This document shows positions 365-26,016 of a stretch of DNA of 64,000 bases, piece after piece. How positions within the stretch are numbered: the stretch's first letter is position 1; every line of letters starts with the position of its first letter. Source of the DNA: an uncultured bacterium (GTDB lineage Bacteria; Acidobacteriota; HRBIN11; JAKEFK01); contig CAVYSN010000001.1 of the NCBI GenBank assembly GCA_963771165.1, forward strand, positions 62,980 to 126,979, written 5' to 3'. The notes beneath the pieces were generated by a model. That model had not been told where the DNA came from. It did no database searches and saw only the letters and a program-made list of their open reading frames with translations. The position numbers and the translations under genes were made by a program.

Positions 365-3300
365 ATTGGTTCTCCTGAGTTTTTTTGTGATTCGTATCCT
401 TTTTTAAGATCTTCCATAACGTCCTTCAATGTAGAATAGCGTTGATTTCGGTCCTTTTCCAATGTCTTTAAGATAATTTTGTGCAGCCAATCGGGAATGT
501 CGGGATTTAGTTTGAGCAGATCAGGCGGCGGCTGGCTCAAATGTTTCAAAACGATTGTTCGCGGATCTTCTCCGGTGAAAGGCTCTTCTCCAGTGAACAT
601 GTAAAACATCAAAACACCGATAGCATATTGATCCGACCGCACGTCAAGGTCCTTTCCTTGAATTTGTTCAGGGGACATATACTTGGGCGATCCCATGACC
701 TGGCCGCTGGTTACATCCACATTGTCCATGGATCGAGCAATTCCAAAATCCAGAACGTGTGGGTTCATAGATTTGTCCATCAAAACGTTCTGCGGTTTCA
801 AATCGCGATGGATGATTCCCTGGGCATGAGCTGCCTGAACTCCCTGCATCATTTTAACAGTCACGGCCAGCAAGGTCTTAAAATCGGGTTTCGCTCTTCT
901 GATCCAGTCATCCAGACTATGTCCTTCGATGTATTCCATGGAGATGTAGCGATTGCCTTTGTATTTACCTGTGTCGAAGACTTTGACAACATAAGGATGC
1001 GCAATACTGCGCGTGACTTTGATTTCACGAAGGAAACGTTTTTGAATCACAGGGTCTGTGCTGATTTCCGCACGCAAAACTTTGAGCGCAACGATTTCAT
1101 CGAGATCACGATCTCGAGCTTTATAAACATGACCCATTCCACCAAGGCCGATTTCCTTGATGATTTCGTATCTTTGGTTGAGAATCATGCCGGCAACAAT
1201 GTCTGCTACTTCCAGCTCTTCCAAAATCTGATCCGCGCCTGCATAGCGACGTTTCGGATCTTTGTGTAAACACTTCTGCATGATTTTTAACAGGAATACA
1301 GGGACCGGAAGGGGATAAGTATCCGGAAAAGCTGGAACCTGTTTGAGATGCTGCAGTTCAACGTCCTGGCCGCTAAAAGGCGTTTTTGCGTACAGCATTT
1401 CATAAAGCACAATTCCAAGCGAATAAATGTCCGTGCGCGCATCCACCTTTTGGCCCAGAATCCGTTCAGGACTGGCGTATTGTTTGGACACCAGGGTGCT
1501 TCCTTTTTCCCATTTCGCATCGATTCCAAAATTCGCAATCTTAATATGATTGCCGGTCGCGCAGTAAATGTTTTCCGGACAAAGATTTTTATGAACCACT
1601 TTTTTCTTGTGAGCAAAGGATAATCCAAGGCAAAGCTGTGAAACCATCTCGCATACTTCCGATACTTCCAGTGGTCCGTGCGCGAGCCGCTGTCGCAATG
1701 TTGGTCCTTCCACGAATTCCATGCAGACGAAATAGTAATCTTCATCCTTTCCGCTGTCGTAGATCGTTAATATGTTGCTGTGGATCAGACCGGACACGAT
1801 GCGAGTTTGCTCCAGAATGTTGCGGGTGATGTTCTTGTCCTGCTCCGGAAAACGCCGGATCAGCACCGGGCGCGCCAGCACAGTGTCCTGCGCTTTGTAA
1901 AGCGTACCAAAGGGGTCTTTTCCCAGCTTTTCCAGCAGCTCGTAGCGGGATGCGAGAATCCTTTTGAGCCCCGTGGGTGTAAAATCCGGGCTTCCCTGGA
2001 CACCATCTAATAAATTCGAAGACTTGATGCGCTGAAGCCTTTTTAACGCATCACTGTAATCGAGATCCACGGAGACGATCTTTTCGTAAATTTCACTCGA
2101 TTTCGAATACTGTGCCCCTTTCTCATAAGCCAACGCCAGACCGTAATAGGTCTGAATGTTGTTTTTGGACAGAGGCTGGTCCCGGATGGCTTCTTTAAAT
2201 TTTTCCTGTGCCACCGAGATACATTTCCATTTGAGTGAAAAGCTGTCCAAGCATGAGACAGGCCTCCGGGTAGTCGTCATCTTCCGATTGGACCTGTTGG
2301 AGAATGGATATGGCCGGCTGGATACTCTTTCTATCGATCAGGAGTTTTGCTGCGCGGATGCTTTTATGGGAGCGGACCAGACATTCTATGGCTTGTTCTA
2401 CCATATCCGCCTGTTCAAAGTAATGTGCCGCCTGTTCGAAGTTTTTTGCTCTGTCAAATAACTCCGCAGCTTTTTTGTAATCCTGCTGCTTGAGAGAAAG
2501 TTCAGCGGCCTTAGGATAGTCTTCCAGCGCCTCATAATAATCCGTAGCGCGTCGATAGTCCTTGAGCCCTTTCAAATGCTTCTGCCGCTCTTGCTCTGCG
2601 TCCAATTTGCAAATAGAGTTCGCCCGCTTCATGAAACTTACCCTGTTGGAAACAGATGTCTGCCAGGAGTTCCTTATTTTCCAGCTCGTCACCCAACCGG
2701 GAAAGGAGCTGGTATGCGGATTCATACTCGTGGATTCGATAATAAAGTTCTGCGGCTTTTTCATACTGATTCGAGAGGGAATAACATTCCGCTGCCTTTG
2801 TATAGTTTTCGGTAAGCTCAAAAGCCTCAGCAGCCCGTTCGTATTTCTTAAAGCGAAGATATAGAGTTCCCGCCGCTTGACCGACTTTGATCATTCTTGT
2901 TCGGTGACTTTGAATGAACCCCTTCTCTTCCCGTTCGCTATAGAGTTGTTTGAAGCGCCGGAAGTATACATCTGCAGCGCGTTCGTATTTTTGCGCTTGA
3001 ACATACAGATAAGCGGCGCGATCCAGAAGCTCAGCTTTTTCGGCAAGAAAAGCGGCACGGGGAATGTCACCGGCCTTTTCGGCCATTTCGGAAGCCCGCA
3101 TGACGTCGCCATTCTTTTCAAACATCGCCGAGGCTGTCCGGTAATCCTTTCAATCTGCCGCTGTAAATTTCGGCGGCATCGGAAATTTTTCCGGCCTGGA
3201 CATAATATTTTGCAGCTTCTTTCCAGTCGCCGCTCTTTTCCAGCATGCGGGCTGCAGAGTGTATAGTGGCCGCCTTTGAGATACATCTGCATTGCGTTCT

Positions 3301-3391
3301 TTTCATCTCCGGCCAGATAGTAAAAATCGCCGGCTTTTGAGTAATCCTCTTGACGTTTCGCCTTCCTGGCTTCTCTTAAGTAATCGGACAT
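361..3391 (-). CDS. TPR-repeat / pseudokinase / Ser-Thr protein kinase multidomain protein, split over at least 5 reading frames (likely assembly indels)
   Basis: ORF pieces 2891..3391, 3118..3306, 2532..3125, 2195..2821 and 361..2280 are collinear on the minus strand. The N-terminal pieces carry TPR/Sel1-like repeats. The middle kinase-like domain lacks the catalytic Lys (VLIRRF), has HKN for HRD and NFG for DFG. The C-terminal domain is canonical (GLGGMG, ALK, HRDLKPQN, DFG, SPE). Confidence 0.75.
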
Positions 3392-3556
3392 CGGCTATTC
3401 AGGATTGTTGAGATACGGATTGCAAGGGCAGAACACACGCATTTACACATTTTATCACGTTGAGCAGGAGGGGGTTGTTCTTCAAGAAAAGATAGCGATG
3501 AGAGTAAAGAGCGAACGAATTCTTTGCTTCCTTCACGATCTTTTGTCCAAAAAGAG

Positions 3557-5008: not shown

Positions 5009-6556
5009 TCACACGAGTAGTGGCAGAGCATTTGCCCCGCTGTTGTGTCTGAACGTGCTGGCGTTCAGGGCGTGCCTTGCCCACCGAGGGTGATGTTCTT
5101 TTGCAAATGCTCTGCAAGTTTGATGAAATTTTGCAGAGCATTTCCTCGGAGGAGCATGTTCATACAAAGACAAAATCACCAATTCAAAAGTCTTGTTTTC
5201 GGAATTACACAGGAATTGCTCTGCCACTACAAGCCTTCGAACTCTTACCCGTTGACGTTCTGGATTCTTCTCAACTTTCCGACTGCGTTTGTTGCCGCTC
5301 TCGCAATTTCCACTTCCTTGATCTCTTAAATAAGGCTCAAGATAGGTGATCGCAACCGGCTGATGCATATTACCAAGCAAATCAATTAACTGAATCTTAA
5401 ATTTTTTATCTGCACCTTTTAAGTAAGCTGCAACTCCGGGTACGGCGCGAGGTCCTAATTCTACCAGATAGCTTTCGGCCTGACTTTCGAATTCCGGATC
5501 TTTTAAATTCAGAACAACGGTATCGATGTACGCAGATTCTCCCAAAGCGTACAGGCTAAAGCTGAGCGCTGTCTTAACCGCCGGCTCTTTTCCCGTTGAA
5601 AGTGAAGCTGCAGTCTCTGAACGTGCTGAGTCAGATTCATACGTCCGATTCCTTCAATCGCCGAAATTTGCAAAGCCTTATCTTCGGAATCCAAATACTT
5701 TACCATCCAGGATTCGTATGCTGGATCCGCGATTCTGCTGATTGCGTGAAAAGCAGCACGTCTGTAATCGTCATCATCGGAATATTCAAACAGTTTTTGC
5801 AATTCCGGCAAGGCTTCTCGATAACGAAGCTGTCCCAGAACGCGCGCGGTGTCTGTTACAACATCTTCATTCGAATGCTTTAGCATAGGAACTAAGATAA
5901 GGTCCGGCGGCAGGATCTCCAATGTAGCCAAGCGATCGTACGGTGGTCCGTACCATTTTCGTATTGGGTGACCTCAAGTAGAATGCAAGTCTTGGCAGCG
6001 AGGATCTTGCGCGCAGCAGACCGAGTACGGCAGCCGCTTCGATTCGATTGTCTGATCACTTTCTGATCCAGCACGAAAAGTGATGGAATCCACCGCTTGC
6101 TGATCCACTCTCAACCATGGTTCCACAATCGTGACTTCCGGCGGATCAAAAAGCGCCGAAATCGATGCCATTAACTTTTTTAACTTTCCATGTTCGTGAC
6201 TTGGAATGTAGACCTCGGTTAACAACGACATCGCCTTTTCCTGGGCTTCGCCTTGCGTATTTCGCACGGCCCGGCTGAGATAAGCGACCTGTTGCGGATG
6301 ATGAATTTTACCGAGAGCTTCCACCACGGCCAGCTGAACTTTTGGATCTTTATCGAGCGTTGCTTCGTCTAAAGCTTCGAGTCGCCAGCTTTTCACCGCG
6401 ATCCCCAACTTCTTTTGCAGCTTCGACAGTGCACTTTCGGATCTGTGTTTTTCAGATTCTGAATCAGCTCATCTGTCGAGAGCTTCTCAGCCGCAAAAGA
6501 TGGGAGCGTAAACGCTAAAGACAATAGTACCAGTGTGATCTTATCTAACCTCATCT
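5009..6556 (-). CDS. HEAT/PBS-lyase-like repeat protein with signal peptide, split in several frames; the 3' end reads through repeat R1
   Basis: Pieces 5974..6408, 5509..5931 and 5009..5545 carry HEAT-like repeats (VAYLSRAV, ARVLGQL, LLGNMHQ). The N-terminus MRLDKITLVLLSLAFTLPSFAAEK starts at 6556 in another frame. The C-terminal ~80 codons are translation of the MITE-like element. Confidence 0.55.
5015..5233. repeat. MITE-like element R1 with terminal inverted repeats GAGTAGTGGCAGAGCATTT / AAATTGCTCTGCCACTACAAG and two internal GCAGAGCATTT boxes
   Basis: Box 1 at 5021 (direct), box 2 at 5107 (inverted, AAATGCTCTGC), box 3 at 5137 (direct), box 4 at 5214 (inverted). The same architecture recurs at 51419..51635 and 53919..54310. 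Confidence 0.7.
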
Positions 6557-10961: not shown

Positions 10962-12603
10962 GGGGCGTATTCTCCGCAGTTCAATGAGAGTTTTTTCTTT
11001 GTCTCCGGAGTCAAGAGCGCGCTGAACGAGCAGAAACCTGGGATCCCAGGTCGACGCCTCAGATAGAATTGTGAGGGCTTCGACGGTTCTACCAAGATGC
11101 AAAAAGGCTTCGCACATCATAAGGATAAGCTCCACCGATTCCCGTCTGTTCGGGTAAACCTGAACAAAATAGGACAGCGCTTCTTCATATTTTTGTTTGC
11201 GATAGCGAATGATACCCAGTCCGGTTTTGCGTCAATAAAATTCGGATCGATTTGAAGAGTCGTCCGAAAGCTTTGCTCCGCTGCTTCGGATTGACCCATT
11301 TCCAGCAACGTAAATCCAAGTCCTGAATGGACGTACGGATTGTGTGGATTTAGGCCGCGCGCTTTCAAATATTCCTCCAGCGCAGCATCATACTGCTTGA
11401 GTTGAAACAGCACGAAAGCAAGATTGATGTGAGGCCGGTATTTTTGAGGAGATTTTTCAACGGTGTCAGCCCAGAGCGTTATCCGCTTCTGCCAGACAAG
11501 ATTTCTTTTCCAGGTGGCGGCGACGTAGAAAGATCAACAAACAGGATAAGGCGAATGGTATTAATCGAGTACCCGACCTTGCAAGAGTGACGGTGTAAGC
11601 CACACAGGCACAGAATCCGAACATGCTGAGATACGTCCGATGTTCCGCCATGAAATCGTTGAGCGGCAGAAGCGAAGAAGGTGCCAGATTTAAAAAGAAC
11701 CATGCTCCCCAGAAAAAGAGCCACGGGTGAATTTTTCTGGACCTCCACAACACAAACATCATAAAGGCAACGACGAGAAGGGAGACGAGAAATTTCCAGT
11801 GCGTCGGATGAAGTGGTTCGACAAAGTGATCCACATTCAGGGGAACCGGAAAAATGGCGAGTCCCAGATATCGCAACCAGACATACATCTCGGTGGAGAG
11901 ATACACTGAGAACGAATAAGGCATTCGGGCTTCAATAAAAGAGAGACGAAAAAGAGCCCCGCATGCGATCAGCAAAAATGTAACAATATGAAAAATGCGA
12001 TGCTTCTTGACAGACTCCCTTCCGAAAAAAGCGTAGTTATAAAGAAGAGCTGCGGCCGGAATCAAAGCGGATTCCTCTTTGCAAAGCAAGCCCAGCAGCA
12101 GAAACAAAACGAACGCTACCGGTTTGAACCAGGCCGGTTTGCGAAGATGAGCATCGAAAGACAATAATGCTGCCCAGTAGAAAAAGTGCGCAGAGCAAGA
12201 TCGGACGGCTTGCTGTGTAAGAAACGGATTCGGTATTCAGAGGATGCACGGCAAACAGGGCAGCCGAAAAAAAGCAAAGGAGCGCGCTCCCGGCGGATCG
12301 TCGCATGAAAACGTAAAAAAGACCTGTCGACAGCAGGTGCAAAACGAAGTCAAAAACGTGATAAGAAAAAGGATCCTTCTGACCGATGCGATAGTTCACA
12401 GCGTAGGTAAAAAGAGTCAATGGCCGAAAGGGTTCAAATCGTGCGATGTTTTGCCAAACCGATAAATCTCTTAAGGCAAAATTGAATCGGATCAGGCGTT
12501 CATCATCGTACTGAAACTCTCCATGAAAAGCGTTCGAGTAAGCGATCCATGCAATCACGCTGATCAGAAGCAGAGCCAGAAGGTCTCTTCGCCTGCCGTT
12601 CAT
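10962..12603 (-). CDS. TMTC-like membrane protein (DUF1736-type polytopic N-terminus plus C-terminal TPR repeats), split in 3 frames
   Basis: Pieces 12037..12603 (MNGRRRDLLALLLISVIAWIAYSNAFHGEFQYDD..., typical TMTC/DUF1736 N-term), 11466..12164 (TM helices) and 10962..11413 (TPR: AALEEYLKARGLNPHNPYVHSGLG). True ATG at 12603. Confidence 0.6.
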
Positions 12604-12630
12604 GGAGAGCACTATACTACGCTTTGTAAC

Positions 12631-12740
12631 GTCCGCGAGACTGTCCCAAAAATGAGTTGGAGCGCGGACTTCCAGTCCGCAAAAACAGGTAATTTCGACG
12701 AGTCTTTGCCGGCAAGGTTGTGCCCGCGCTCCCACTAGAT
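12631..12740. repeat. ~105-nt structured intergenic repeat, copy A (second copy at 21713..21818)
   Basis: Near-identical core AGTTGGAGCGCGGACTTCCAGTCCGCAAAAAC ... GACGAGTCT ... GCGCTCCCACTA. It contains the hairpin GCGGAC-TTCCA-GTCCGC and a long-range stem GGAGCGCGG/CCGCGCTCC. Sits in the divergent region between the TMTC-like gene and suhB. Confidence 0.7.
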
Positions 12741-12779
12741 GTTCGACAGGCTCCACTACTATCAAGGTACAATATCGGC

Positions 12780-13574
12780 ATGAAGCTCGAGACTTTCTTG
12801 CGCCAACTGTTGTTGCAAGCAGGTGACCGCCTGCGGAAACAATTTGGACGCGTAAAGAGTGTTCACTATAAAGCGGGTTCAGTAACAAATCTCGTAACAA
12901 ATGTTGACCGGGATGTCGAAAAATTCATTAAATCCCAGATTCGAAAGAGATACCCGAATGACAGCATACTGGCGGAAGAAAGTGAGCTGGAGAAGGCGCA
13001 TTCTCCGCAAAGATGGATCATCGATCCGCTGGATGGAACGACGAATTTTGCTCACGGTTTGTCTTTGTTTTGTATTTCGATCGGCGTCGAAATGGAAGGG
13101 GATTTAATTGCGGGCGGAGTATACGATCCGATGCACGACGAGCTGTTTTTTGCGAGCAAAGGAAAGGGAGCGACTCTCAACGGAAAAAAGATCCGGGTGT
13201 CACGGATAGAAAAGCTGGAGCAAAGTCTGCTCGTTACAGGTTTTCCTTATGACATCCATGAGAACCCCGAAAAATCTTTACCCTATTTCAACGCTGTGAT
13301 TCAGCGCGCCCAGGGTTTAAGGCGGCTTGGATCCGCCGCTCTGGATATTTGTTATCTTGCAATGTCGCGCTTCGATGGATTCTTTGAAGTGTTTCTGAAT
13401 CCATGGGACACAGCCGCAGGATGTCTGATCTTGCGCGAAGCGGGTGGAGTCATTACTGATTTTTCAGGAAAACCATTTTCCATTTATCAGCGTGAGCTGG
13501 CTGCGAGTAACGGTTTGATCCATGATGAAATGATTCAGGTTTTGAAAAAGGTGAAAAATGAAAAGGTCCGGTAG
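12780..13574 (+). CDS. suhB: Inositol monophosphatase family protein (SuhB-like)
   Basis: IMPase motifs (ILAEESE, WIIDPLDGTTNF, DPWDTAAG). The track start 12720 reads through repeat A, so ATG 12780 (MKLETF) is preferred. Confidence 0.8.
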   Translation: MKLETFLRQLLLQAGDRLRKQFGRVKSVHYKAGSVTNLVTNVDRDVEKFIKSQIRKRYPNDSILAEESELEKAHSPQRWIIDPLDGTTNFAHGLSLFCISIGVEMEGDLIAGGVYDPMHDELFFASKGKGATLNGKKIRVSRIEKLEQSLLVTGFPYDIHENPEKSLPYFNAVIQRAQGLRRLGSAALDICYLAMSRFDGFFEVFLNPWDTAAGCLILREAGGVITDFSGKPFSIYQRELAASNGLIHDEMIQVLKKVKNEKVR

Positions 13575-14986
13575 CTTGCTGGTATTTCTGCTTTTGGCGG
13601 CGCTTGTTTCGGCTCAAGACAAGAACCGCCGCAATTTTTCCTGGACTTTCGATCAGAAGAACGATCCGATCTTGCAAGTAAAGAATGAATCCGTGGATCC
13701 TGTGAGAGTGGAAGTGCGATTGTTGTTTCAGGATGACAGCTATCGATACCCGGAAGATATCGAAGTTCCTTCCGGCGAAAGCCGTTTTTTGCGGATCCGT
13801 GAAGCGCTCGATCGTCTGTCGCGGCGATATGGAGATCTTGCAAGTATGAGCTCCGGAATTGTGCAAATTCAATTCGTAGGAGATAACCAGCAAATAGAAA
13901 GCACGATTGTCAATCTGAATCCGAAAATGGGTGTAACTATCCGACAAATCTCCCGGACACGCAGCACCGGTGATTCGCTCCGTGGAACCCCGGTCCGGAC
14001 CGCCTTCCGGTGGAACAGTTGTAACGATAGCAGGTGAGAATTTTACGGAAGCAACCACAGTCAAATTTGATGGAATTCCTGCGATGCGAAATCTTCAGTC
14101 CGGCGATGCTTTGATAGCGATTGCACCGCCGCACAGTGCTGGAAGCGTCGATATTGAGGTCAGCAATGGGAGGAGCCGCACCGGATTGCGGAAAGCGTTT
14201 ACCTATGCATCGGCAAGTCCTGTCATTGTTCGATTCGATCCGGACAGTGGAGCTCCGGCGGGTGGTGCCACGATCCGTATACGCGGCCGGAATTTTCAAC
14301 CGGGAGCAAGGATCCTGTGGGATGGTCGGGCGCTATCCACACGCTTTATCAGTCCGGAAGAGGTGTCCGTTACAGCTCCTGCAGGCCCCAGCGGTTCTAT
14401 TTCTGTAGAACTCTTGAATCCGGATGGAACCCGTTTTATTTTGGAAGACGCGTTCCTCTACCAAGGCGGACCACGCGTGATTGCAGTTCAGCCGCAAATG
14501 GGTAGTCCGGATGGAGGATACAGGGTGACAGTGGCCGGGGACAATTTTGATCCGGGTTGCAGCGTTCTTTTCAACGGCAATTATGGAGAAACGACGTACA
14601 TCAATCCGCGGGCGCTCGCTGCGGTGGTTCCTCCCGGTGAGAGCGGTGCAGTGGATGTATCCGTCTCCACCGAGGATGGGGAAACGGACACATTGCAGAG
14701 CGCATTCACCTATAATGAACAGCCCGTGATTCACTCCATGTCAGCGTATCCGAATCCGATCGTACGAAATACGACGACTACGATTACTGTAGAAGCTGAT
14801 GATCCGGAGGCTGGTCCGCTCGATTACGAGTATCGCATTGCACAGGGACCGGGGATCATCACAGGGCAAGGGCGAACGGCTGTTTATAATTCTCCGAATG
14901 TGACCGGCATAGCAGTCATTCAGGTAACGGTATATGATCAGCATCGCGCAAAGGCGCAACAGAATCTTGAAATTCACGTGGAGTAA
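13558..14986 (+). CDS. Secreted protein with 3-4 IPT/TIG domains; one frameshift near 13960-13990
   Basis: Signal peptide MKRSGSLLVFLLLAALVSAQ. Repeated P..G..GGT.VTI.G.NF IPT motifs (e.g. GGTVVTIAGENF). ORFs 13558..14037 and 13970..14986 are collinear. Confidence 0.6.
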
Positions 14987-14988
14987 TT

Positions 14989-15237
14989 ATGGAAGAAGCA
15001 CCCATCATCAAACTTAATTTTGGAAGATATCTAAAACCATCCGTTGCGCCCTGCTCATTTTGCGGTGTAGACATTCCAGGCAAGGCTGGATTTCTGTTAA
15101 AGATTGAGAATCTGACAGGGAATACGCTCAATGAAATCCATCTTTGCACCAAGTGTATGGAACACAGCCGCCAGTATGAGGCAGAAATTGATCTGTCGAC
15201 AAGCAACCCGCAACATTCGCTCAAACTCGGATTTTAA
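14989..15237 (+). CDS. Small zinc-ribbon-like protein (CSFCG ... CTKC)
   Basis: 82-aa ORF starting 3 nt after the IPT gene stop, with two CxxC pairs. Confidence 0.4.
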   Translation: MEEAPIIKLNFGRYLKPSVAPCSFCGVDIPGKAGFLLKIENLTGNTLNEIHLCTKCMEHSRQYEAEIDLSTSNPQHSLKLGF

Positions 15238-15244
15238 CTCAGAG

Positions 15245-15296
15245 ACGCAAAGACGCGGAGACGATCAAAAGACTTTGCGTCTCCGCGTCTTTGCGT
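15245..15296. terminator. Bidirectional hairpin (19-bp perfect stem) between convergent genes; member of a GACGCA-heptad hairpin family
   Basis: ACGCAAAGACGCGGAGACG ... CGTCTCCGCGTCTTTGCGT. The arms are built from AGACGC(A) heptads. Lies between the zinc-ribbon ORF (+) and tyrA (-). Confidence 0.6.
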
Positions 15297-15355
15297 TAAT
15301 TCTTATCCATTCATCCAGCAGATTGCGCATGTGTTTTGCGGTGCGAAGCATATTT

Positions 15356-16029
15356 TCACCATTCGACTTCCAGAAAAGTTTTCAGCAAGTCAGGTGACGT
15401 ATTCGCCAGACGAGTCATGGATTGAAAACCGGGCCCCTTGAAATCCGGTGGCACGCTTTTACCTATTTTTTGAAGCAATCCTGCAAGGACAGCAGGAAAA
15501 TGGCTGGTGACGGATACGAAGCGATCATGCTGGTTCGCATCAACAACCACCGGACGCCCTCCAAGGTCTTTCGCGAAAATTTGCACAGTTTTCAAATCCC
15601 GATGCGATGAATGCCTGGAAGTACAAACAAAAAATGGAGCATTCTCAAATAAGTTCTCCCGCCATCCTTTTTCGCCGGCAAATTCATTTCCAGTCATCGG
15701 ATGACCGCCAATAAAACGCAGTTTTCTGCGGTTTGCGAGCCGGATCAGTTTCGCTTTTCCGCTACACACATCCATCAACAGCCGGCCAGGATCAACCCTG
15801 TCGAAGAAAATCTGTTGTCTGAGCGTAATGAAGACAGATGACAGTGAGGTCTGCGTCCGCGGCATCTTCCCATTGCTTGCTCGCATGGTCAAGCAAGGAG
15901 TGGAGTAATTGGAGCCGTTTTGAGGAAGTATCAATACCTGTAATCGAATATGTGCTTTTGATTTTTTCGAAGCGTTAAAACGATGGAACCTCCGATCTGG
16001 CCGAGCCCGACGATGGCGATTCGCTTCAT
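15356..16029 (-). CDS. tyrA: Prephenate dehydrogenase (TyrA), frameshifted
   Basis: N-terminus [15 protein letters not shown] begins at 16029 in one frame. The core ([22 protein letters not shown]) is in the 15356..16255 frame. Its ATG overlaps the aroF TGA (ATGA). Confidence 0.75.
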
Positions 16030-17059
16030 CGCGTTTTCCAAAGCCTGTCCCGTCCAAGGGCAGATGCGATCGCCTTGAGCTCCCGCATGAGATCCGCGAA
16101 CCCTTGAAAATCGAGGCTCTGAGGGCCATCGCTTTTGGCTTTTTCCGGTTGTCCATGCACTTCAACCATGATTCCATCGGCGCCGACCGCAAGCGCGGCT
16201 TTGGCAAGCGCCGGCACCAGACTTCTCCTTCCCGCCGCATGACTCGGATCCACAATGATCGGTAGATGCGAAAGCTCCTTGATCACCGGTACAGCGGAGA
16301 TATCCAGCGTGTTTCGCGTGTATGTTTCGAACGTCCGGATTCCTCGTTCGCACAGCATCACCTGAGAGTTTCCACCGGAAAGAATGTATTCACTCGCAAG
16401 CAAGAATTCTTCGATCGTAGAAGACAACCCGCGTTTGAGCAGAACCGGTTTCTGGGCTTCGCCTGCGGCCTTCAGCAAAGAAAAATTTTGCATGTTGCGC
16501 GCTCCGATCTGAACCACATCGGCATATTGCACAGACCGTATTCATTTCAGAAGCGGACATCACTTCTGTAACAACCGGTAATCCGGTTTTTTCACGCGCT
16601 TCAGCCAGGTACTTCAGTCCCTCTTCTCCCAATCCTTGAAAACTATAGGGGGAAGTCCGGGGCTTATAAGCGCCGCCTCGTAACATGTGGGCGCCCTGTT
16701 CTTTTACAAATTCGGCAACTTCCAGTAAATGATCGCGTGATTCCACAGAGCAGGGACCTGCAATGATTACGAATCCTCCATGGGTCCCTACCTCGGAACC
16801 GTTGATGCGAACAACGCTGTCGGCTTCGTGGAAGTCGCGTGAAGCCATTTTGAATGGCTTTGTAATGCGAATCACTTCTTCCACAGCCTTCAAGATCCAG
16901 AAATGCTTCTCTGGAAATATGCGACGTGTCTCCCAGCAGACCAATGACCGTACGTTCCTCACCACGAGACACGTGATAACGAATGTTCATCTGATCCAGA
17001 TGTTGGATCACATCACTAATCTGTTTTAGCGTCGCCGCATGACCCATCACGACAATCAT
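16026..17059 (-). CDS. aroF: 3-deoxy-7-phosphoheptulonate (DAHP) synthase with N-terminal ACT-like regulatory domain (Thermotoga type), split in 3 frames
   Basis: [44 protein letters not shown] (ACT domain), then [14 protein letters not shown] ... [23 protein letters not shown], then [10 protein letters not shown] ... DPSH. The pieces are collinear with Thermotoga maritima DAHP synthase. Confidence 0.8.
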
Positions 17060-17076
17060 AAAAACCTCCTAGCTCA

Positions 17077-17138
17077 TTAACGCAAAGACGCAATGACGCA
17101 ATGAAAAAAATCTTCGCGGCTTAGCGTCTTTGCGTTAA
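17077..17138. repeat. Intra-operon hairpin TTAACGCAAAGACGC ... GCGTCTTTGCGTTAA between aroH and aroF (GACGCA-heptad family)
   Basis: 15-bp inverted arms with a 32-nt spacer. Followed on the minus transcript by the AGGAGG RBS of aroF. Confidence 0.55.
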
Positions 17139-17142
17139 ATCT

Positions 17143-17499
17143 TCATAGGTCCGGCCGCAGGGAAGCCGCATTGCCCAAGTACTGATGGCGTACATCTTCC
17201 TGAGCCGCATTTGTTTCAAACAAAACTAAAACTCGTAAAACTCTTTCCAGCGCTCCTTCTACGGGAATCTCCTGGCCACACAAGAAAGGAACCAATTCCC
17301 ATCCAAGTTTGGTCCGGACGGCTGCTGGAAATGCCGCATTCAAATCGGGCGTCACCGTAAAAAAAACCGTCGATACGTTCTCTCGCTGGATTTGATTCGA
17401 ATCGATCAATGCAAGCATCAACTCTTCGGCAGCTGCAACGATTGCCTGCTTCTCATTGATGCTGACCTGAATGGCTCCACGAACACCTCGTATCATCAC
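17143..17499 (-). CDS. aroH: Chorismate mutase, AroH class (monofunctional, B. subtilis type)
   Basis: MMIRGVRGAI ... TPDL ... LRPDL, about 118 aa, matches AroH end to end. Confidence 0.8.
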   Translation of the reverse strand: MMIRGVRGAIQVSINEKQAIVAAAEELMLALIDSNQIQRENVSTVFFTVTPDLNAAFPAAVRTKLGWELVPFLCGQEIPVEGALERVLRVLVLFETNAAQEDVRHQYLGNAASLRPDL

Positions 17500-18218
17500 A
17501 ATCTCCTGAAGCTTTCATAGAACTTTTGCAACTTCTCAACGTGACCTGAACGGATGATTTCAACGATTCTCGAACCAACGATAAATGCATCGATTGCGCC
17601 TTGATATGGTTCCGTGTCTACCGCACTCTTGATTCCGAAGCCGAGGGCCAAGGGCACGCGTGCGTGTTTCTTGACTTGAAATGCTTTATTTCTGATCTGC
17701 TCATGATTTTGAATCGTGGCGCCCGTTGTTCCCTTCAGGGAGAGCAGATACACAAATCCTTCGGCCGCCGCTGCGATTCGTTTTAAACGTTCTTCACCGG
17801 TTGAAAGGGAGATAAATGAAATCCAGAATATTCCACATTCTTTTGTCATTTCCCGCCACTCCGCCGATTCTTCAAAGGGCACATCCGGTACGATCAGATA
17901 CTTCGCGCCGCATTCCGCGGAAGCTTTCATGAATTCTCTCTGACCATACGCGAGAATCGGATTTGCGTACGACATCAAGGCCAGCGGTACGCGGGTGGAC
18001 TTGCTTTGCAAGAGCTCGAATAGAGAATCGATTGAAAAAGCGTGCTCCAGCACCTCAGAGGCGGCACTCGCCAGGACGGGTCCGTCAGCAACCGGATCTG
18101 TAAACGGGATTCCGATCTCAATCGTGTCGGCGTATTGCAGCGTAAGATCCAGGATTTCTGAGAAACGGGATGCATCAGGGAACTGCGCCAGCAAATAAGG
18201 ATAAAAGAGTTTTTTCAC
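17496..18218 (-). CDS. trpA: Tryptophan synthase alpha chain
   Basis: TrpA family similarity across 240 aa. Overlaps trpB by 4 nt. Confidence 0.85.
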   Translation of the reverse strand: MKKLFYPYLLAQFPDASRFSEILDLTLQYADTIEIGIPFTDPVADGPVLASAASEVLEHAFSIDSLFELLQSKSTRVPLALMSYANPILAYGQREFMKASAECGAKYLIVPDVPFEESAEWREMTKECGIFWISFISLSTGEERLKRIAAAAEGFVYLLSLKGTTGATIQNHEQIRNKAFQVKKHARVPLALGFGIKSAVDTEPYQGAIDAFIVGSRIVEIIRSGHVEKLQKFYESFRRL

Positions 18219-19381
18219 TCCAGCTCCTCCAGCACAATGTTGAGATCCTTGTCGCCGCGTCCCGATAAATTCACCACAATCGCGCCGCTCTGATTTGTCA
18301 GTGTTTTCAGATAAGCGATTGCATGACAGGATTCCAGGGCAGGAAGAATTCCTTCTGTTTTTGCCAGTGTTTGAAATGCCTCAAGGGCTTGCTGATCGGA
18401 AACAGTTACGTATTGCACACGTCCCGTGTCTTTCAAGTGGCTGTGCTCCGGACCAACCGCCGCATAATCCAGTCCGGGCGCTATGGATTCCGTGTCCTCA
18501 ATCTGTCCCTGTGATCTTTGCAAGACATAGGTGTAAGCGCCGTGCAGAATTCCCGGTTTGCCATGTTTGAGTGTTGCAGAATGGTGTCCGGGTGCGTCGC
18601 TGTTTCCCCCCGCTTCCACTCCTATCAACCGAATGCCCGTGTTGAGGAGTGGATAGAATAGTCCGATCGCGTTGGATCCGCCTCCTACGCAAGCGATTGC
18701 AACAGAAGCTTTTTGATTCTCAACCTGAATCTGCGCAACAACTTCTTCACCGATCACTTTTTGGAAATTGCGAACAATCATCGGATACGGATGAGGTCCT
18801 ACGACGGATCCGATCAGGTAATGAGTATTGTCGACGTTTGCAATCCAGTCGCGGAGCGCTTCGTTGATTGCATCTTTCAACGTTTGTGAACCCTGGACCA
18901 CAGGACGGACTTCCGCGCCAAAATGTTTCATCCTGCGAACATTCAATTGTTGTCGCTGCACATCTTTTGCGCCCATATACACAACGCAATCGAGTCCAAG
19001 CCGTGCACAAGCTGCGGCAGTAGCGACTCCGTGCTGCCCGGCTCCCGTTTCAGCAACGATCCTGCTCTTCCCAAGTTTTGCTGCGAATAGAGCTTGACCG
19101 AGACAGTTGTTGATTTTGTGTGCGCCTGTATGGCACAGATCTTCGCGCTTTAAATAAACCGGTCCGATTTGTAATTGCTCGGTTAGACGTTTTGCAAAAT
19201 AAAGTGGCGTCGGTCTTCCTGCAAATTCTTTCAGCTCGCGGGATAGGCTGCTTCGGAATTCGGAAGATCCGGCTATCCGTTCATAGTCGCTTTCGAGCCG
19301 CAACAACGCTTCCATCAATGTTTCCGGGACAAATCGCCCACCATACTTACCGAAATATCCCCGGCTATCCGGTACTGTCAT
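18215..19381 (-). CDS. trpB: Tryptophan synthase beta chain
   Basis: PLP-enzyme motifs (HTGAHKINN, GGGSNAIG). Confidence 0.9.
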   Translation of the reverse strand: MTVPDSRGYFGKYGGRFVPETLMEALLRLESDYERIAGSSEFRSSLSRELKEFAGRPTPLYFAKRLTEQLQIGPVYLKREDLCHTGAHKINNCLGQALFAAKLGKSRIVAETGAGQHGVATAAACARLGLDCVVYMGAKDVQRQQLNVRRMKHFGAEVRPVVQGSQTLKDAINEALRDWIANVDNTHYLIGSVVGPHPYPMIVRNFQKVIGEEVVAQIQVENQKASVAIACVGGGSNAIGLFYPLLNTGIRLIGVEAGGNSDAPGHHSATLKHGKPGILHGAYTYVLQRSQGQIEDTESIAPGLDYAAVGPEHSHLKDTGRVQYVTVSDQQALEAFQTLAKTEGILPALESCHAIAYLKTLTNQSGAIVVNLSGRGDKDLNIVLEELE

Positions 19382-20685
19382 TTTCCGTTCACCAGCCGGA
19401 TGAATTCGCGAATCTTATTTCCATCTTTGATGCCCGGCTCGCTTTCGACGCCGCGTGCTACATCGACCCATTCCGGATGACAAAGCGAAATCGCCTGTGA
19501 GATATTTCCTGCATGTAATCCGCCGGCAAGCGCAAACAGGGATTTCCGGCTCAGTAGTTCCCATGCCTGAGGGAGATCGGATTCCGGGATTTTGATGTCG
19601 AGCAAACGACCTTGAGAAGCTTCGGTTTGCTCTGCTATTTCACGCAAAGACGTTAGAGTTGTTGCATGCCAGGTTGGAATCGAAGCGCTGCACGAATCAT
19701 AGATCTGGGCGATGTTCAGGGCGCATTCGGCGATGGTTGATTCGATCTCCTGCCGCGATTGATTGCGAAATACGCCGATGCATGGAACAGCAATCCGTTC
19801 ACGGAACGACTTCAGGCTCTCAACGGAGATTCGTCTCGGACTCTCTGCGAAAATGAACCCCAGAGCAGAAGCTCCCAACTCAGCGGAAGTTCTCGCATCA
19901 CGCTCAGTTGTGATGCCACAGATTTTTACCTTCGTGTGCGATGCAGATCGAACAAAGCGGGACAGTTCTTCGGCTGGATTTTCGGAACGCAGAAAATGTT
20001 CGCCAATCAAAGCGCCGTTGTATCCAAGCGAAAAAACTTTTCGCAAAACCTCAACACTGTCGATGCCGCTTTCTGCAATGCAGTAAGCATCGGGAAGAAG
20101 ATCTCTCATTCGAACAAATCTTGATAGATCGACCTGCAAGGTCTCCAGATCGCGTGAATTTACGCCAATGTACCGGACCGGGAAATCGAGTTTCTGCAAA
20201 TCCTTCTCGTCCGTGACTTCAACAATCGCATTCATTCCGATCTTTTCACACAATTGTTGCATTTCTCGAATCTGTTCCGGTTTTAGAAATCTTGTAATCA
20301 GCAGAATAAAATCTGCACCGGCTTCCTTTGCTTCAAGGATCTGGAATTCATCCAAAATAAAATCCTTTTGCAAAAGCGGCGTCGAAACTGCTCGGCGCAC
20401 CTGGCGCAAATCGTCCAGCGATCCTTGAAAGAAGTGTTCTTCGGTCAACACCGAAATGGCTGCGGCTCCTGCAGCTTCATAGGATCGAGCCAGCCGGTCG
20501 AGATCCAGGCCCGGTCGAATCGCGCCGACCGAAAGCGATGCGCGTTTGATCTCTGCAAAAATTCGGAATTGATTTCTCTCCCAATAGAGACGCCGGTCAT
20601 CCAGAGGAACATCCGGCGTATGCTGCGATTTACGTTGTTCCACATCGGTCTTTTTACGTTTCAGAAGCTCCGCGATTGTTTTCAT
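19378..20685 (-). CDS. trpCF: Bifunctional indole-3-glycerol-phosphate synthase / phosphoribosylanthranilate isomerase (TrpC-TrpF fusion)
   Basis: IGPS half (MKTIAELL ..., FILDEFQILEAKEAGADFILL, IGVNSRDLETL) plus PRAI half (KICGITTERDA ... IQIYD). The real ATG at 20685 overlaps the trpD TGA. The track start 20922 is a read-through extension. Confidence 0.85.
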   Translation of the reverse strand: MKTIAELLKRKKTDVEQRKSQHTPDVPLDDRRLYWERNQFRIFAEIKRASLSVGAIRPGLDLDRLARSYEAAGAAAISVLTEEHFFQGSLDDLRQVRRAVSTPLLQKDFILDEFQILEAKEAGADFILLITRFLKPEQIREMQQLCEKIGMNAIVEVTDEKDLQKLDFPVRYIGVNSRDLETLQVDLSRFVRMRDLLPDAYCIAESGIDSVEVLRKVFSLGYNGALIGEHFLRSENPAEELSRFVRSASHTKVKICGITTERDARTSAELGASALGFIFAESPRRISVESLKSFRERIAVPCIGVFRNQSRQEIESTIAECALNIAQIYDSCSASIPTWHATTLTSLREIAEQTEASQGRLLDIKIPESDLPQAWELLSRKSLFALAGGLHAGNISQAISLCHPEWVDVARGVESEPGIKDGNKIREFIRLVNGK

Positions 20686-21690
20686 GCGGGGAACATCTCC
20701 TGGAGTCGTTTTACCACGCGAAGGGCCGCGCCTGAATCCAACGATTCGATCACAGCCTGCTTTGCACTTTCCTCCGTTGCATCCGGATGGTATGCAAGAT
20801 AACCCAGCAAAGCGTTGAGTAATACAGTATCCCGTCGGGCACCTTTTTCTCCGTTCAAAATGGCCTGCGTAATCCGTGCGTTCTCCGCCGGCGAGCCTCC
20901 TTTCAGGTCTTCGCTGCAGCATTCCAGGAACCCGAAATTCGCTGCATTTTTGACGTCAGGTGGCCCAAACGTGCTGTGTAGAATGAATTCAGCAGAAGGG
21001 GATGCTTCATCGAAGCCATCCACTGAATGAACCAGGAAGGCGCGCTTTTGAGAATCGAGTTTTCGAATTGCTGACTCCATCAAAGGAAGAGCACGCCTTT
21101 CATAGACTCCAATGACTTGAACCTCAGGAATGGCTGGATTGGTCAACGGCCCGAGTAAATTGAAGATGGTTGGAGTGTCAAGCTGTTTTCGGACCATAAC
21201 AACAGATTTTGTTGCCGGATGATAGTCGGGAGCAAAGAGGAAAACGAAACCGGTTTTTTCCAGCGCCCGCGGACAGCTGTTCCGGGCTCATGCTGTGCGA
21301 GATCCCCAGCTCATGCAAGAGATCCGCGCTTCCGCTTGCCGATGAAGCGGCACGATTTCCGTGTTTGACGATCGGAATTCCGCACCCGGCCAGAACAAAT
21401 GCTGCGCTCGTTGAAATGTTAAAACTATTCTTTTTATCTCCGCCGGTTCCACAAGTGTCCATGATCCGAATCCCATTCAAATGAACTCGAATGCATTTTT
21501 CCCTCATCGCTGCAGCAAAACCAGCAATTTCTTCGGCGGTTTCCCCTTTCCTGTGAAGCTCTGTTAGAAACGCTCCGGTTTGTGCAGAATCCCATGCTTG
21601 TTCCATCATTGCGAAAACAGCTTCTTTACTTTCGCGGGCGTTTAAATCCTCACCGAGCTTTACCTTTTCGATGAACTCTTGATATTTCAT
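20682..21690 (-). CDS. trpD: Anthranilate phosphoribosyltransferase, split in 2 frames
   Basis: N-terminus MKYQEFIEKV ... DTCGTGGDKKNSFNISTSAAF (21178..21690) and C-terminus (20682..21197) are collinear. Confidence 0.8.
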
Positions 21691-21712
21691 TTTCGCAGTT
21701 GACCTATTAACG

Positions 21713-21818
21713 CCCGCGAGATCCTCCCAAAAGTTAGTTGGAGCGCGGACTTCCAGTCCGCAAAAACTGTTAAGCTCCACGAGTCTATTGCGGGCCAAAG
21801 ATGTCTGCGCTCCCACTA
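21713..21818. repeat. ~105-nt structured intergenic repeat, copy B (trpG-trpD spacer)
   Basis: Aligns with copy A at 12631..12740. Fills nearly the whole 125-nt trpG-trpD spacer. A C to T change in the 3' arm keeps the long-range stem as a G-U pair when read as the plus-strand RNA. Confidence 0.7.
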
Positions 21819-22388
21819 AATCTGATCCAGGAAGTTTTTCATCAAGCGCATTCCTTCCTTTGTCATATAAGATTCCGGATGAAATTGCACACCTTCGGTC
21901 ATTGTTCCTCGCACTCGAAGTCCCATGATCTCTCCCGCTGGCGTGTGCGCAGAAATATGCAGCTCAGCTGGAAGCTTTTCTTCAGCCACAATCAATGAAT
22001 GGTAGCGCGCCGCCGCAAACGGGTTTGTCAGTCCTGAAAAGACTCCATTCCCATCATGGATGATCATGGATGTTTTCCCGTGCATTAGAACAGGAGCGCG
22101 TTGTACTCTCCCGCCAAAAACATGTGCGATGCATTGATGACCGAGGCAAACCCCAAGCACAGGAACCCTGGAGTGAAAATGCAAGATCATTTCATTGGAG
22201 CAGCCGGCATCAATCGGTGTTCCCGGTCCAGGTGAAATCACGACATGTGAGGGGCGGTACTCTTCCGCCTCCTGCACTGTAACCTGATCGTTATACTTAA
22301 CCTTCACATCGGCTCCCAGTATCAGAAAAGCCTGATACAGGTTGTATGTAAATGAATCGTAGTTATCGATCAGCAGGACACGGTTCAT
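21816..22388 (-). CDS. trpG: Anthranilate synthase component II (glutamine amidotransferase)
   Basis: Class-I GATase motifs (GVCLGHQ, H/E triad region). Confidence 0.85.
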   Translation of the reverse strand: MNRVLLIDNYDSFTYNLYQAFLILGADVKVKYNDQVTVQEAEEYRPSHVVISPGPGTPIDAGCSNEMILHFHSRVPVLGVCLGHQCIAHVFGGRVQRAPVLMHGKTSMIIHDGNGVFSGLTNPFAAARYHSLIVAEEKLPAELHISAHTPAGEIMGLRVRGTMTEGVQFHPESYMTKEGMRLMKNFLDQI

Positions 22389-23710
22389 AAAGGCTCCCGG
22401 GACATCTCCAACATTTTTCGCAGCGCCATCGCTTTATTGTTAATCTCTTCGAACTCTTTTTCGGGAACAGAATCTGCAACAATTCCCGCTCCTGCTGTGA
22501 AACGATAACGTCCTTCCTGGTACTGAAGACATCGAATCGCTATGCAATGATCCAGCACTCCATGTGCGCCGAAATAACCAACCGATCCGGCATAGAGCCC
22601 GCGACTGTGCGGTTCGAGCTCTTCAATGATCTGCATCGCACGCACCTTCGGTGCGCCCGATACTGTGCCGGCAGGAAAGACGGAAGAGAGTAGTTTTTGC
22701 AGAGATGGCGTTTTCGAAACAGTGGATTCCACCGTAGAGACAAGATGCATTACGTGCGAGTATCGTTCCACTTTCATGAACTCTGTGACCTGAACGGATC
22801 CGGGATCGGCCAGCCTTCCCAGATCGTTTCTTGCAAGATCCAGCAGCATCATGTGTTCCGCCTTTTCTTTTTCATCTTGCAGCAGATCGGTTTCGAATCC
22901 CCGATCTTCCTCCTCATCCTTGCCGCGCTTGCGCGTTCCGGCAATCGGCCGCAACAGGATTCTGGATCGCTCCGTGCGCACCATGGTTTCAGGACTCGAT
23001 CCGAAGAATTGAAAACGGTCCTGGAAATTTAAATAGAACATGTAAGGGGAAGGATTGATCATTCGAAGCGCGCGGTACATTTGAAATGGATCGGCTTCAC
23101 TTTCACCATCATATTGCATCGAGAGCACCACTTGATAAATATCTCCCGCAGCGATAAACGCTCTCGCTCGTTCGACCATCGACTCGAATTCTTTTTTGGA
23201 CACATTCGCGACTGGTTCGGAAGATGAGCCGGAACGGGGCATGGGAAGAATTGTACGAAGGCATGCGCGAATCTCCTGCGCAAGCTTGTCTGTTCTTGCT
23301 CGTCAAGTATCGAATTCAGATAGATTCTGTTCTTCAGATGATCAAACGAGAGGATCGCAGAGGGAAGAACGAATCCCGCTAGAGGATCCCTGGAAGGTTT
23401 GAGACTGATTTTTGGGTGCAGTAGAGCCGCGAGCGGATACGACAAAAATCCGATGAATCCGGAAGTCAGTCTTCCATTTTCTTTTTCGGGCAACGAATGG
23501 ATTTGTTCTTCCAGTGAATCGAAGTACGGTCCGGCCTGAGCCGGATCTTCCAGAACAAAGTATTGCTTTGGGCAGAATTCCGATGAAGGAATATCTTCCC
23601 ATGGTTTCGTTTTTTTCAACGCTTTCCAAAAGGAAGAGCGGCTGCAATGGCGTCAGCTTCAGAAATGCCGAAACCGGAGTCTCTAGATCCGCCGCAAACT
23701 CGTTACTCAT
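22385..23710 (-). CDS. trpE: Anthranilate synthase component I, split in 3 frames
   Basis: Pieces 23342..23710 (MSNEFAADLETPVSAFLKL), 23059..23619 and 22385..23242 (chorismate-binding domain, GTVSGAPKVRAMQII) are collinear. Confidence 0.8.
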
Positions 23711-25885: not shown

Positions 25886-26016
25886 GTCATGAGCGATGAG
25901 CAAGAGCAAGAGAACCGCCAAGACGCCAAGAAACCAAGTTCCCAGGATTAATTATTTTTTCTTGGCGTTTTTGACTATCTTGGTTTCTTGGCGGTTTTCC
26001 TGACTCATGACTAAGG
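25886..26016. repeat. Degenerate short-tandem-repeat region arranged as a ~50-nt-arm imperfect inverted repeat
   Basis: TCATGAG x2, CRATGAG, CAAGAG x2, (A)ACCGCCAAG, ACGCCAAG, AAACCAAG. The 3' half is its reverse complement (CTTGGCG ... GGTTTCTTGGCGGTTTTCCTGACTCATGAC). Confidence 0.55.

Follow-up and report, generated by a model that had tools for sequence, protein, structure and literature searches.

A two-hairpin repeat in the trp operon and the suhB spacer of an uncultured acidobacterium as a probable REPIN-type mobile element

The window analysed here is a stretch of 64,000 nucleotides (nt) of contig CAVYSN010000001.1 (positions 62,980 to 126,979, forward strand) from an uncultured bacterium of the Acidobacteriota, and it contains two copies, A and B, of an intergenic palindromic element. 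Copy A lies in front of an inositol monophosphatase gene (suhB-like, 12780-13574, plus strand, ATG at 12780), which faces a TPR/PMT-like gene on the minus strand (ATG at 12603). Copy B is located among trp genes on the minus strand, whose order is trpE, trpG (22388-21816), trpD (from 21690) and trpC-F. The comparison of genes and relatives agrees with the context given by the initial annotation of this DNA, that is, a divergent suhB/TMTC spacer and a trpG-trpD junction. The features of both copies are listed below, where REP stands for repetitive extragenic palindromic and the L numbers are loci from other genomes.

12626..12759, plus strand: copy A, complete element of 134 nt, in the 176-nt spacer of the divergent TPR/PMT-like and inositol monophosphatase genes
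12626..12658, plus strand: outer terminal inverted repeat of copy A, GTAACGTCCGCGAGACTGTCCCAAAAATGAGTT, counterpart of GTAGCGCCGGCGAGACTGTCCCAAAACGCA in the full-length copies L070, L092, L123 and L126
12659..12680, plus strand: REP unit 1 of copy A, foot GGAGC and hairpin GCGGAC-TTCCA-GTCCGC
12681..12707, plus strand: inter-hairpin spacer of copy A, 27 nt, partly conserved with copy B, L022 and L124
12708..12732, plus strand: REP unit 2 of copy A, inverted and degenerate, GCCGGC-AAGGTTGT-GCCCGC and foot GCTCC
12733..12759, plus strand: second outer inverted repeat of copy A, degenerate, CACTAGATGTTCGACAGGCTCCACTAC, whose reverse complement GTAGTGGAGCCTGTCGAACATCTAGTG matches 12626-12658
21688..21690, minus strand: start codon of trpD, ATG, 125 nt downstream of the trpG stop
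21708..21821, plus strand: copy B, 114 nt, between trpG and trpD (genes on the minus strand)
21708..21739, plus strand: outer terminal inverted repeat of copy B, TAACGCCCGCGAGATCCTCCCAAAAGTTAGTT
21740..21761, plus strand: REP unit 1 of copy B, identical to unit 1 of copy A
21762..21789, plus strand: inter-hairpin spacer of copy B, 28 nt
21790..21813, plus strand: REP unit 2 of copy B, inverted, GCGGGC-CAAAGAT-GTCTGC and foot GCTCC, holding a C-to-T change
21816..21818, minus strand: stop codon of trpG, TAG, inside the segment common to copy A (CTAGTGGGAGCGC in A, TTTAGTGGGAGCGC in B)

The two copies and their gene surroundings

The 28-mer GGAGCGCGGACTTCCAGTCCGCAAAAAC occurs exactly twice in the 64 kb, at 12659 and 21740, where no occurrence is expected (100 shuffles). 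A repeat search of the window gave a direct repeat of 86 nt (12627-12712 and 21708-21793, 84% identity), and pairwise alignment showed the copies to be homologous across ~114 nt. These results bear out the two plus-strand copies that had been placed at 12631-12740 and 21713-21818. The extent then proposed, ~105 nt, has to be corrected, since copy A really covers 12626-12759 and copy B 21708-21821. Copy B had also been taken for the entire trpG-trpD spacer, which is mostly right: the spacer measures 125 nt, of which 108 belong to the segment common to copy A, but the 17 nt beside the trpD ATG (21691-21707) are not shared.

In both copies, the local hairpin GCGGAC-TTCCA-GTCCGC lies within an enclosing stem, GGAGCGCGG/CCGCGCTCC, whose partner strand in copy B is CTGCGCTCC, leaving one G.T pair. 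Hairpin, enclosing stem and the single C-to-T change of copy B are thus all present as initially annotated. The inverted pair of REP units gives a longer hairpin in copies A and B, in which the arms of the enclosing stem surround both hairpins and the feet pair on folding; in the DNA fold of copy A, GAGACTGTC also pairs with GACAGGCTC, which belong to the outer repeats. The RNA fold of copy B is better than that of shuffled sequences (z = -4.6 on the plus strand and -3.1 on the minus strand), and that of copy A differs from them weakly (z = -1.65 and -2.45). Single-base details of both copies should be treated with care, because the assembly of the window seems to be rich in insertions and deletions.

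Comparison with related genomes indicates that copy B is an insertion, because in close relatives trpG and trpD abut without a spacer: in L112-L115 (TrpG 84% identical) and L116-L118 (80%) the trpG stop abuts or overlaps the trpD start (TAA directly followed by GTG, or TGATG). Furthermore, the present TAG stop codon of trpG falls in the part that copies A and B have in common, and TrpG of the window ends in ...NFLDQI, whereas most relatives end in ...NFLE(T/M/L) or LE. Hence, the inserted element probably supplies the trpG stop codon, at an exact boundary that we infer. In the trp mRNA, the hairpin begins 2 nt past this codon. Two other TrpG homologues, P0002 (85% identical) and P0005 (84%), carry an 8-residue C-terminal extension past the usual ...NFLE (TGTTDEHR and TATTDEHR), and their trpG-trpD junctions may also be altered.

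The presence of the element differs between related genomes at both loci, with a precise empty site available for copy B only, which is itself truncated at one end. It is missing from the trpG-trpD junction of L112-L118 and also from the suhB-side spacer of L127-L130 (SuhB-like proteins 76-79% identical), where other palindromes are found instead. L127 carries an unrelated palindrome, CCGCAGAG...CTCTGCGG, in its suhB/TPR-gene spacer (L127:2400-2480), and L128 (2190-2480), L129 and L130 carry a cluster of ~290 nt that has textbook REPs headed by GTAG at its ends (TTTGTAGGGGCGCGATTCATCGCGCCCC ... GGGGCGCGATGAATCGCGCCCCTACAAT), whose canonical GTAG REP is GTAGGGGCGCGATTCATCGCGCCCC. Judging from these sequences, the suhB/TPR-gene spacer is evidently a landing pad that has been repeatedly colonised by palindromic repeats.

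Concerning the trp genes themselves, trpD (20682-21690, minus strand) is split into two open reading frames (ORFs) with a frameshift at an A7 run (~21252-21258), and trpE (22388-23710, minus strand) needs two frame changes (-1/-2/-1). Pairs of overlapping ORFs on the same strand are frequent throughout the window (e.g., 2198-3394, 5012-5973, 11469-12924, 15359-16986 and 40222-42004), so these frameshifts are more likely assembly errors than decay specific to trp.

The wider repeat family and its link to transposase genes

The core of the element consists of two different short hairpins in inverted orientation: GGAGC, a 6-bp stem and a TTCCA loop, then a spacer, and a 6-bp stem with an A(A/G)GAT loop followed by GCTCC. 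In the clean form of REP unit 2 found in relatives, this second part reads GCGGGC-AAGAT-GCCCGC-GCTCC. The family was searched with the 19-mer GCGCGGACTTCCAGTCCGC in one genome per species, which gave at least 111 loci. Among the matches listed, the foot G[GT]AG precedes the 19-mer in 106 of 128 occurrences; it is GGAG in the window and in most copies, and GTAG in 11 of the 106 footed ones (10 from Verrucomicrobiota and 1 from Hymenobacter). The few unfooted matches that fall in coding sequence look like chance. The footed 19-mer, and likewise the identical 22-nt REP unit, extends over at least six phyla, with members in Verrucomicrobiota, Alphaproteobacteria (Labrys and others), Chloroflexota, Acidobacteriota, Planctomycetota and Bacteroidota. 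Copies are mostly intergenic, with many per genome in Labrys and Prosthecobacter; the matches listed include at least 36 occurrences in 29 Labrys loci and at least 49 in 41 Verrucomicrobiota loci. Viral contigs scanned for the 21-mer gave no match, and the hairpin sequence, when looked for in the literature, turned up only in mouse primers unrelated to it.

The REP unit very often has an inverted partner 30-70 nt away (...GCGGAC(TGGAA/AGGAT/AAGAT)GTCCGCGCTCC), and inverted doublets are also present in L022, L070, L092, L119, L120 and Labrys. The closest relative of the window copies is L022 (81% over 118 nt), and L124 is also close. The core of L022, GGAGC-GCGGAC-TTCCA-GTCCGC ... GCGGGC-AAGGAT-GCCCGC-GCTCC, has stems that differ by compensating changes. 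L012 and L016 carry a simple 'double-foot' hairpin, GGAGCGCGGACTTCCAGTCCGCGCTCC (GGAG...CTCC). Prosthecobacter copies share ~80 conserved nt downstream, this conserved part being repeat sequence, and only ordinary genes, no REP-associated tyrosine transposase (RAYT) gene, flank them.

When the pattern was extended to the window type, a metagenome scan gave 4 loci. In these and in L070 and L092, the core lies inside near-perfect inverted repeats of ~30 nt, GTAGCGCCGGCGAGACTGTC(C/T)CAAAACGCA ... TGCGTTTTGGGACAGTCTCGCCGGCGCTAC, that start with GTA(A/G)C and are usually flanked by TTT and AAA. The window sequence CCGCGAGACTGTCCCAAAA is one such outer repeat. Copy A keeps both outer repeats, the second in degenerate form, and copy B keeps one, being truncated against the trpG coding sequence.

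The covariation of the hairpin, a check that the initial annotation had proposed, was analysed with all matches to foot, N6, TTCCA and N6 in the collected sequences (25 distinct variants), and the hairpin does covary. Paired cells reach 77%, versus 59% in shuffles (none of 500 shuffles attains the observed value) and 27-38% in slid controls. Double changes occur at all 6 stem pairs, and the covariation score is 0.488 versus 0.197 for shuffles. Fully paired stems make up 10 of 24 distinct sequences with the foot, versus 2 of 1524 for TTCCA without it. A fixed foot and fixed loops together with free but paired stems are as predicted by protein recognition of the hairpin. The variants with a single mismatch have G.T in 5 cases and A.C in 3, with no clear preference, so nothing suggests that one particular strand acts as RNA. 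The proposal that the C-to-T change of copy B, by keeping a G-U pair, reflects selection on RNA is therefore not sustained.

The same architecture was found around transposase genes. L046 (47-616) encodes a 190-aa ORF that scores 88.2 bits against NCBIfam NF047646 REP_Tyr_transpos (cutoff 80), with Pfam Y1_Tnp at 3.4e-9 and PDB 4ER8, the structure of E. coli TnpA-REP, at E = 5e-9, and this RAYT gene is flanked on both sides by GGACTGGAAGTCCGCGCTCC. Its homologous proteins at E <= 1e-10 number 4695. Many are labelled RayT by their sources, and four were examined with their flanks (L119, L120, L121 and L122). The RAYT gene of L119, whose product is 66% identical to that of L046, has GGAGC-GCGGGC-TTCCA-GCCCGC-ATGAAAG-GCGGCC-AAGAT-GGCCGC-GCTCC on both flanks. 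The flanks in L120 contain several copies of GGAGC-GCCACC-TTCCA-GGTGGC-AA-TGCCAGC-AAGAT-GCTGGC-GCTCC, those in L122 a diverged two-hairpin version, and those in L121 a different REP. The window core and the RAYT flanks of L046, L119 and L120 share one architecture: foot, TTCCA hairpin, AAGAT hairpin and inverted foot.

Other members of the family deserve mention. In L116, a doublet of REP units from this family, GGAGCGCAGGCTTCCAGCCTGCATTATGGGCCGCAGGCATTCTGCCTGC, lies at ~6318-6380 (minus strand) inside the trpC-trpF gene (L116:5568-6971), in frame in the IGPS-PRAI linker, and inserts 27 residues (IFRAKQAECLRPIMQAGSLRSIGQGRT) that the window protein lacks. Here a member of the family has entered the trp operon of a relative in an independent event; the stem variant of this doublet is also present at L128:5169 (minus strand). 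Tandem arrays occur in Verrucomicrobia, with 33-nt units GGAGCGCGG(A/G)CTTCCAG(T/C)CCGCGGCCCGCCCTG in L013:1-150 and units of ~108 nt in L108:1780-2220. In Anaerolineaceae, the 22-mer appears at L017:3053, L053:4945 and L075:3217 within a stretch that is conserved in the 3 genomes with third-position-like differences; it looks like coding sequence, so the 22-mer there is either a coincidence or an old REP in frame.

The window also contains other palindromic repeats. A second, unrelated family is represented at 15235-15308 and 17070-17145 (~79% identity, arms TTAACGCAAAGACGC...GCGTCTTTGCGTTAA), one copy being just downstream of the gene that follows trpA. Moreover, an intergenic inverted repeat at 25907-26002 has 25-nt arms, 84% complementary and 46 nt apart (CAAGAGAACCGCCAAGACGCCAAGA / TCTTGGTTTCTTGGCGGTTTTCCTG).

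Weighing the explanations

Because of the repetition, the insertion of copy B, the covariation of the stems with fixed feet and loops, and the same architecture flanking RAYT genes elsewhere, segments A and B are quite likely copies of a non-autonomous mobile DNA repeat whose hairpins would be substrates of a RAYT, that is, an element of the type of REPINs (REP doublets forming hairpins) or BIMEs (bacterial interspersed mosaic elements). Several observations weigh against this. The window has only two copies, and no RAYT or Y1 gene was detected in its 64 kb by tblastn or with a hidden Markov model of 120 homologues. A cognate RAYT in the organism itself is thus putative and unproven, and mobilisation of the GGAG-footed family by such an enzyme is proposed by analogy with E. 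coli and IS200/IS605. The window foot reads GGAG where GT[AG]G would be canonical, though it stands directly at the stem. REP unit 2 is degenerate in both copies, which may be immobile relics. The extended pattern is rare in the metagenome collection, with its 4 loci, and the outer ~30-nt repeats resemble those of miniature inverted-repeat transposable elements (MITEs) and were not seen beside the RAYT genes of L046, L119 and L120.

The outer repeats (GTAGCGCCGGCGAGACTGTCCCAAAACGCA) could instead be the ends of a classical MITE moved by a DDE-type transposase, with the REP-like core as a passenger, for instance a REPIN that had earlier inserted itself into another palindromic element. The near-perfect 30-nt terminal inverted repeats that bound L126, L123, L070 and L092, the element size of 134-175 nt, the frequent flanks TTT-GTA...TAC-AAA and the lack of outer repeats around the three RAYT genes just named are in line with it. 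However, no target-site duplication was seen at the ends of any copy examined, in the window or in relatives, and no autonomous or parent element with these ends (GTAGCGCC...GACTGTC) was found in the sequences examined, where every outer repeat comes with a GGAGC core, though these loci were chosen by the core. The outer end, for its part, opens with GTAG, the hallmark of REPs, and goes on with a GC-rich palindrome, like the GTAG REPs of L128, and copy B keeps one outer repeat only. A MITE of this kind is therefore improbable. Chance similarity or an assembly artefact, which could be suspected from the many apparent indel errors of the window, has a negligible probability in view of the exact 28-mer with none expected and of the whole-element relatives in independent assemblies, L022 and L124.

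The remaining explanation is a cis-acting structured RNA, such as a stabiliser, processing site or translation barrier of the trp mRNA or a 5' untranslated region (5'UTR) element of suhB or the TPR gene, or else a trans-acting small RNA from the plus strand. Copy B is necessarily part of the trp operon mRNA (minus strand) if the operon is expressed, its RNA folds beat shuffles on both strands, the hairpin covaries, and the same end of the element is 17-23 nt upstream of a minus-strand start codon in both window copies. In addition, REP hairpins in E. coli mRNA can stabilise upstream messages and lower the translation of a gene that ends close by. Nevertheless, a DNA hairpin recognised as single-stranded DNA predicts covariation equally well as RNA, there is no bias of G.U over A.C, and the z-scores of copy A are weak. 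The element is conserved at neither orthologous locus in relatives, and the family appears in unrelated contexts across six phyla, even in frame inside a trpC-trpF gene. Rfam, searched at gathering and permissive thresholds, gave a chance match to SNORD107 (E = 8.9) as its sole result and thus supports no known RNA family, and a scan of both strands found neither a sigma-70-like promoter nor an intrinsic-terminator-like site within or close to the two copies. An RNA function is accordingly very improbable. Of the options put forward in the initial annotation, the small RNA, the riboregulator and the processing site are thus not supported, and only the fourth, a REP-like DNA repeat, is supported, by the insertion at trpG-trpD and by the relatives of the core that flank RAYT genes. 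It had also been suggested that a plain DNA repeat would lack compensatory changes; the DNA repeat is retained and its stems do carry such changes.

Other candidates within the element were considered and rejected. Neither a sigma-54 nor a sigma-70 promoter gave a convincing match by eye or in the scan. As for an intrinsic terminator, the plus strand has the hairpin followed by AAAAA, on the minus strand the T-run precedes the hairpin, and the scan found none. A minus-strand frame is open through both copies, the same in each, but an encoded peptide was ruled out because the trpD start is fixed by orthologue alignment and an open frame of 35 codons is not unusual.

Known systems, proposed mechanism and implications

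REPs, REPINs and RAYTs are already well known (PMC3116915, PMC3733652, PMC6006769), and the window element is a further family. REPINs and BIMEs with their RAYT (TnpA-REP) have been described in Pseudomonas fluorescens SBW25 and E. coli (Bertels & Rainey 2011, PMC3116915; Quentin et al. 2018, PMC6006769), the canonical REP foot being a GT[AG]G tetranucleotide 0-2 nt 5' of the stem (PMC6006769). Like them, the family presented here is intergenic, has a conserved foot of 4-5 nt directly 5' of the stem, and has two inverted units that form a larger hairpin; the stems covary and no target duplication is seen. The two units are of different types, as in the Y and Z BIMEs of E. coli. In other genomes, a single Y1/HUH transposase gene reaching the REP_Tyr_transpos cutoff has the repeat on its flanks, as in a REPtron, and the GGAG...CTCC hairpins of L012 and L016 resemble the 'double-foot' REPs of RAYT subclass 2.4. 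Unlike in REPINs, the foot is mostly GGAG, the loops TTCCA and AAGAT are strictly conserved, an identical 22-mer spans phyla, the acidobacterial copies have extra 30-nt outer inverted repeats, and no cognate RAYT lies within the window.

Palindromic repeats tagged with GTAG and families with terminal inverted repeats have also been tied to tyrosine transposases by Di Nocera et al. (2013, PMC3733652), who reported families in Chloroflexi and Planctomycetes/Verrucomicrobia, intragenic REPs, and long inverted repeats on either side of RAYT-like genes. The outer ends of the window type are similar in that they begin with GTAG or GTAAC followed by a GC-rich palindrome. On the other hand, that survey has no GGAG-footed family ('GGAG' has 0 occurrences in its text), and the inverted repeats described here enclose a REP doublet and not a transposase gene.

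The element likewise shares features with the enterobacterial ERIC/IRU (enterobacterial repetitive intergenic consensus/intergenic repeat unit) sequences and the Correia elements of Neisseria: these are imperfect palindromes of 100-170 nt with terminal inverted repeats, they are often co-transcribed with neighbouring genes, even in operons, and their presence varies between relatives. Those elements are MITE-like palindromic repeats inserted in transcribed regions with TA target duplications, and to our knowledge they have no link to Y1 transposases. The element analysed here differs from them in having no sequence similarity to them and no TA duplications.

If the REPIN-type reading is right, a RAYT (an HUH-Y1 enzyme) with a single-copy gene at another place in the genome would recognise the hairpins as single-stranded DNA, contacting the fixed bases of foot and loop. 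It would cut and rejoin next to the foot and thereby insert copies of the element at further intergenic positions, leaving no target duplication. The example of E. coli TnpA-REP and IS200/IS605 (PMC6006769, PMC3479197) suggests that this copying could take place at replication forks through single-strand cleavage. Copy B would thereby have separated trpG and trpD, formerly abutting, and placed a strong hairpin in the trp mRNA, and copy A would have filled most of the divergent promoter/5'UTR region. Possible side effects at the RNA level are a lost translational coupling of trpG and trpD, a hairpin after the trpG stop and an occupied divergent 5' region. Any effect on expression would be, we infer, a by-product and not the reason why the sequence is conserved.

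Given the identical REP unit in so many phyla, the GGAG-footed two-hairpin repeat and its RAYT might move horizontally between phyla as one system, a possibility that we consider rather doubtful. If true, it would contrast with vertically inherited RAYTs and with REPs, usually described as species-specific (PMC6006769), and the system would tolerate insertion into operons and even in frame into genes, the trpC-trpF linker of L116 being a case of the latter. Regardless of how it spreads, the near-identity of the REP unit across phyla is a small puzzle about the spread of such systems.

For the window, the outcome is that a candidate regulatory RNA is removed and that the 125-nt gap of the trp operon would be explained as a transposon scar, the element itself being probably an ordinary genomic parasite. 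For REP biology, what is new is a probable REP/RAYT family with a non-canonical GGAG foot, conserved loops, an outer shell of inverted repeats in one lineage and a unit unusually well conserved across phyla, some of which, such as Acidobacteriota and Verrucomicrobiota, have hardly been described so far with regard to REPINs. Existing REP finders would overlook this family where they demand GT[AG]G. Finally, its fixed foot and loops beside covarying stems offer a testable guess at the bases that the transposase may read.

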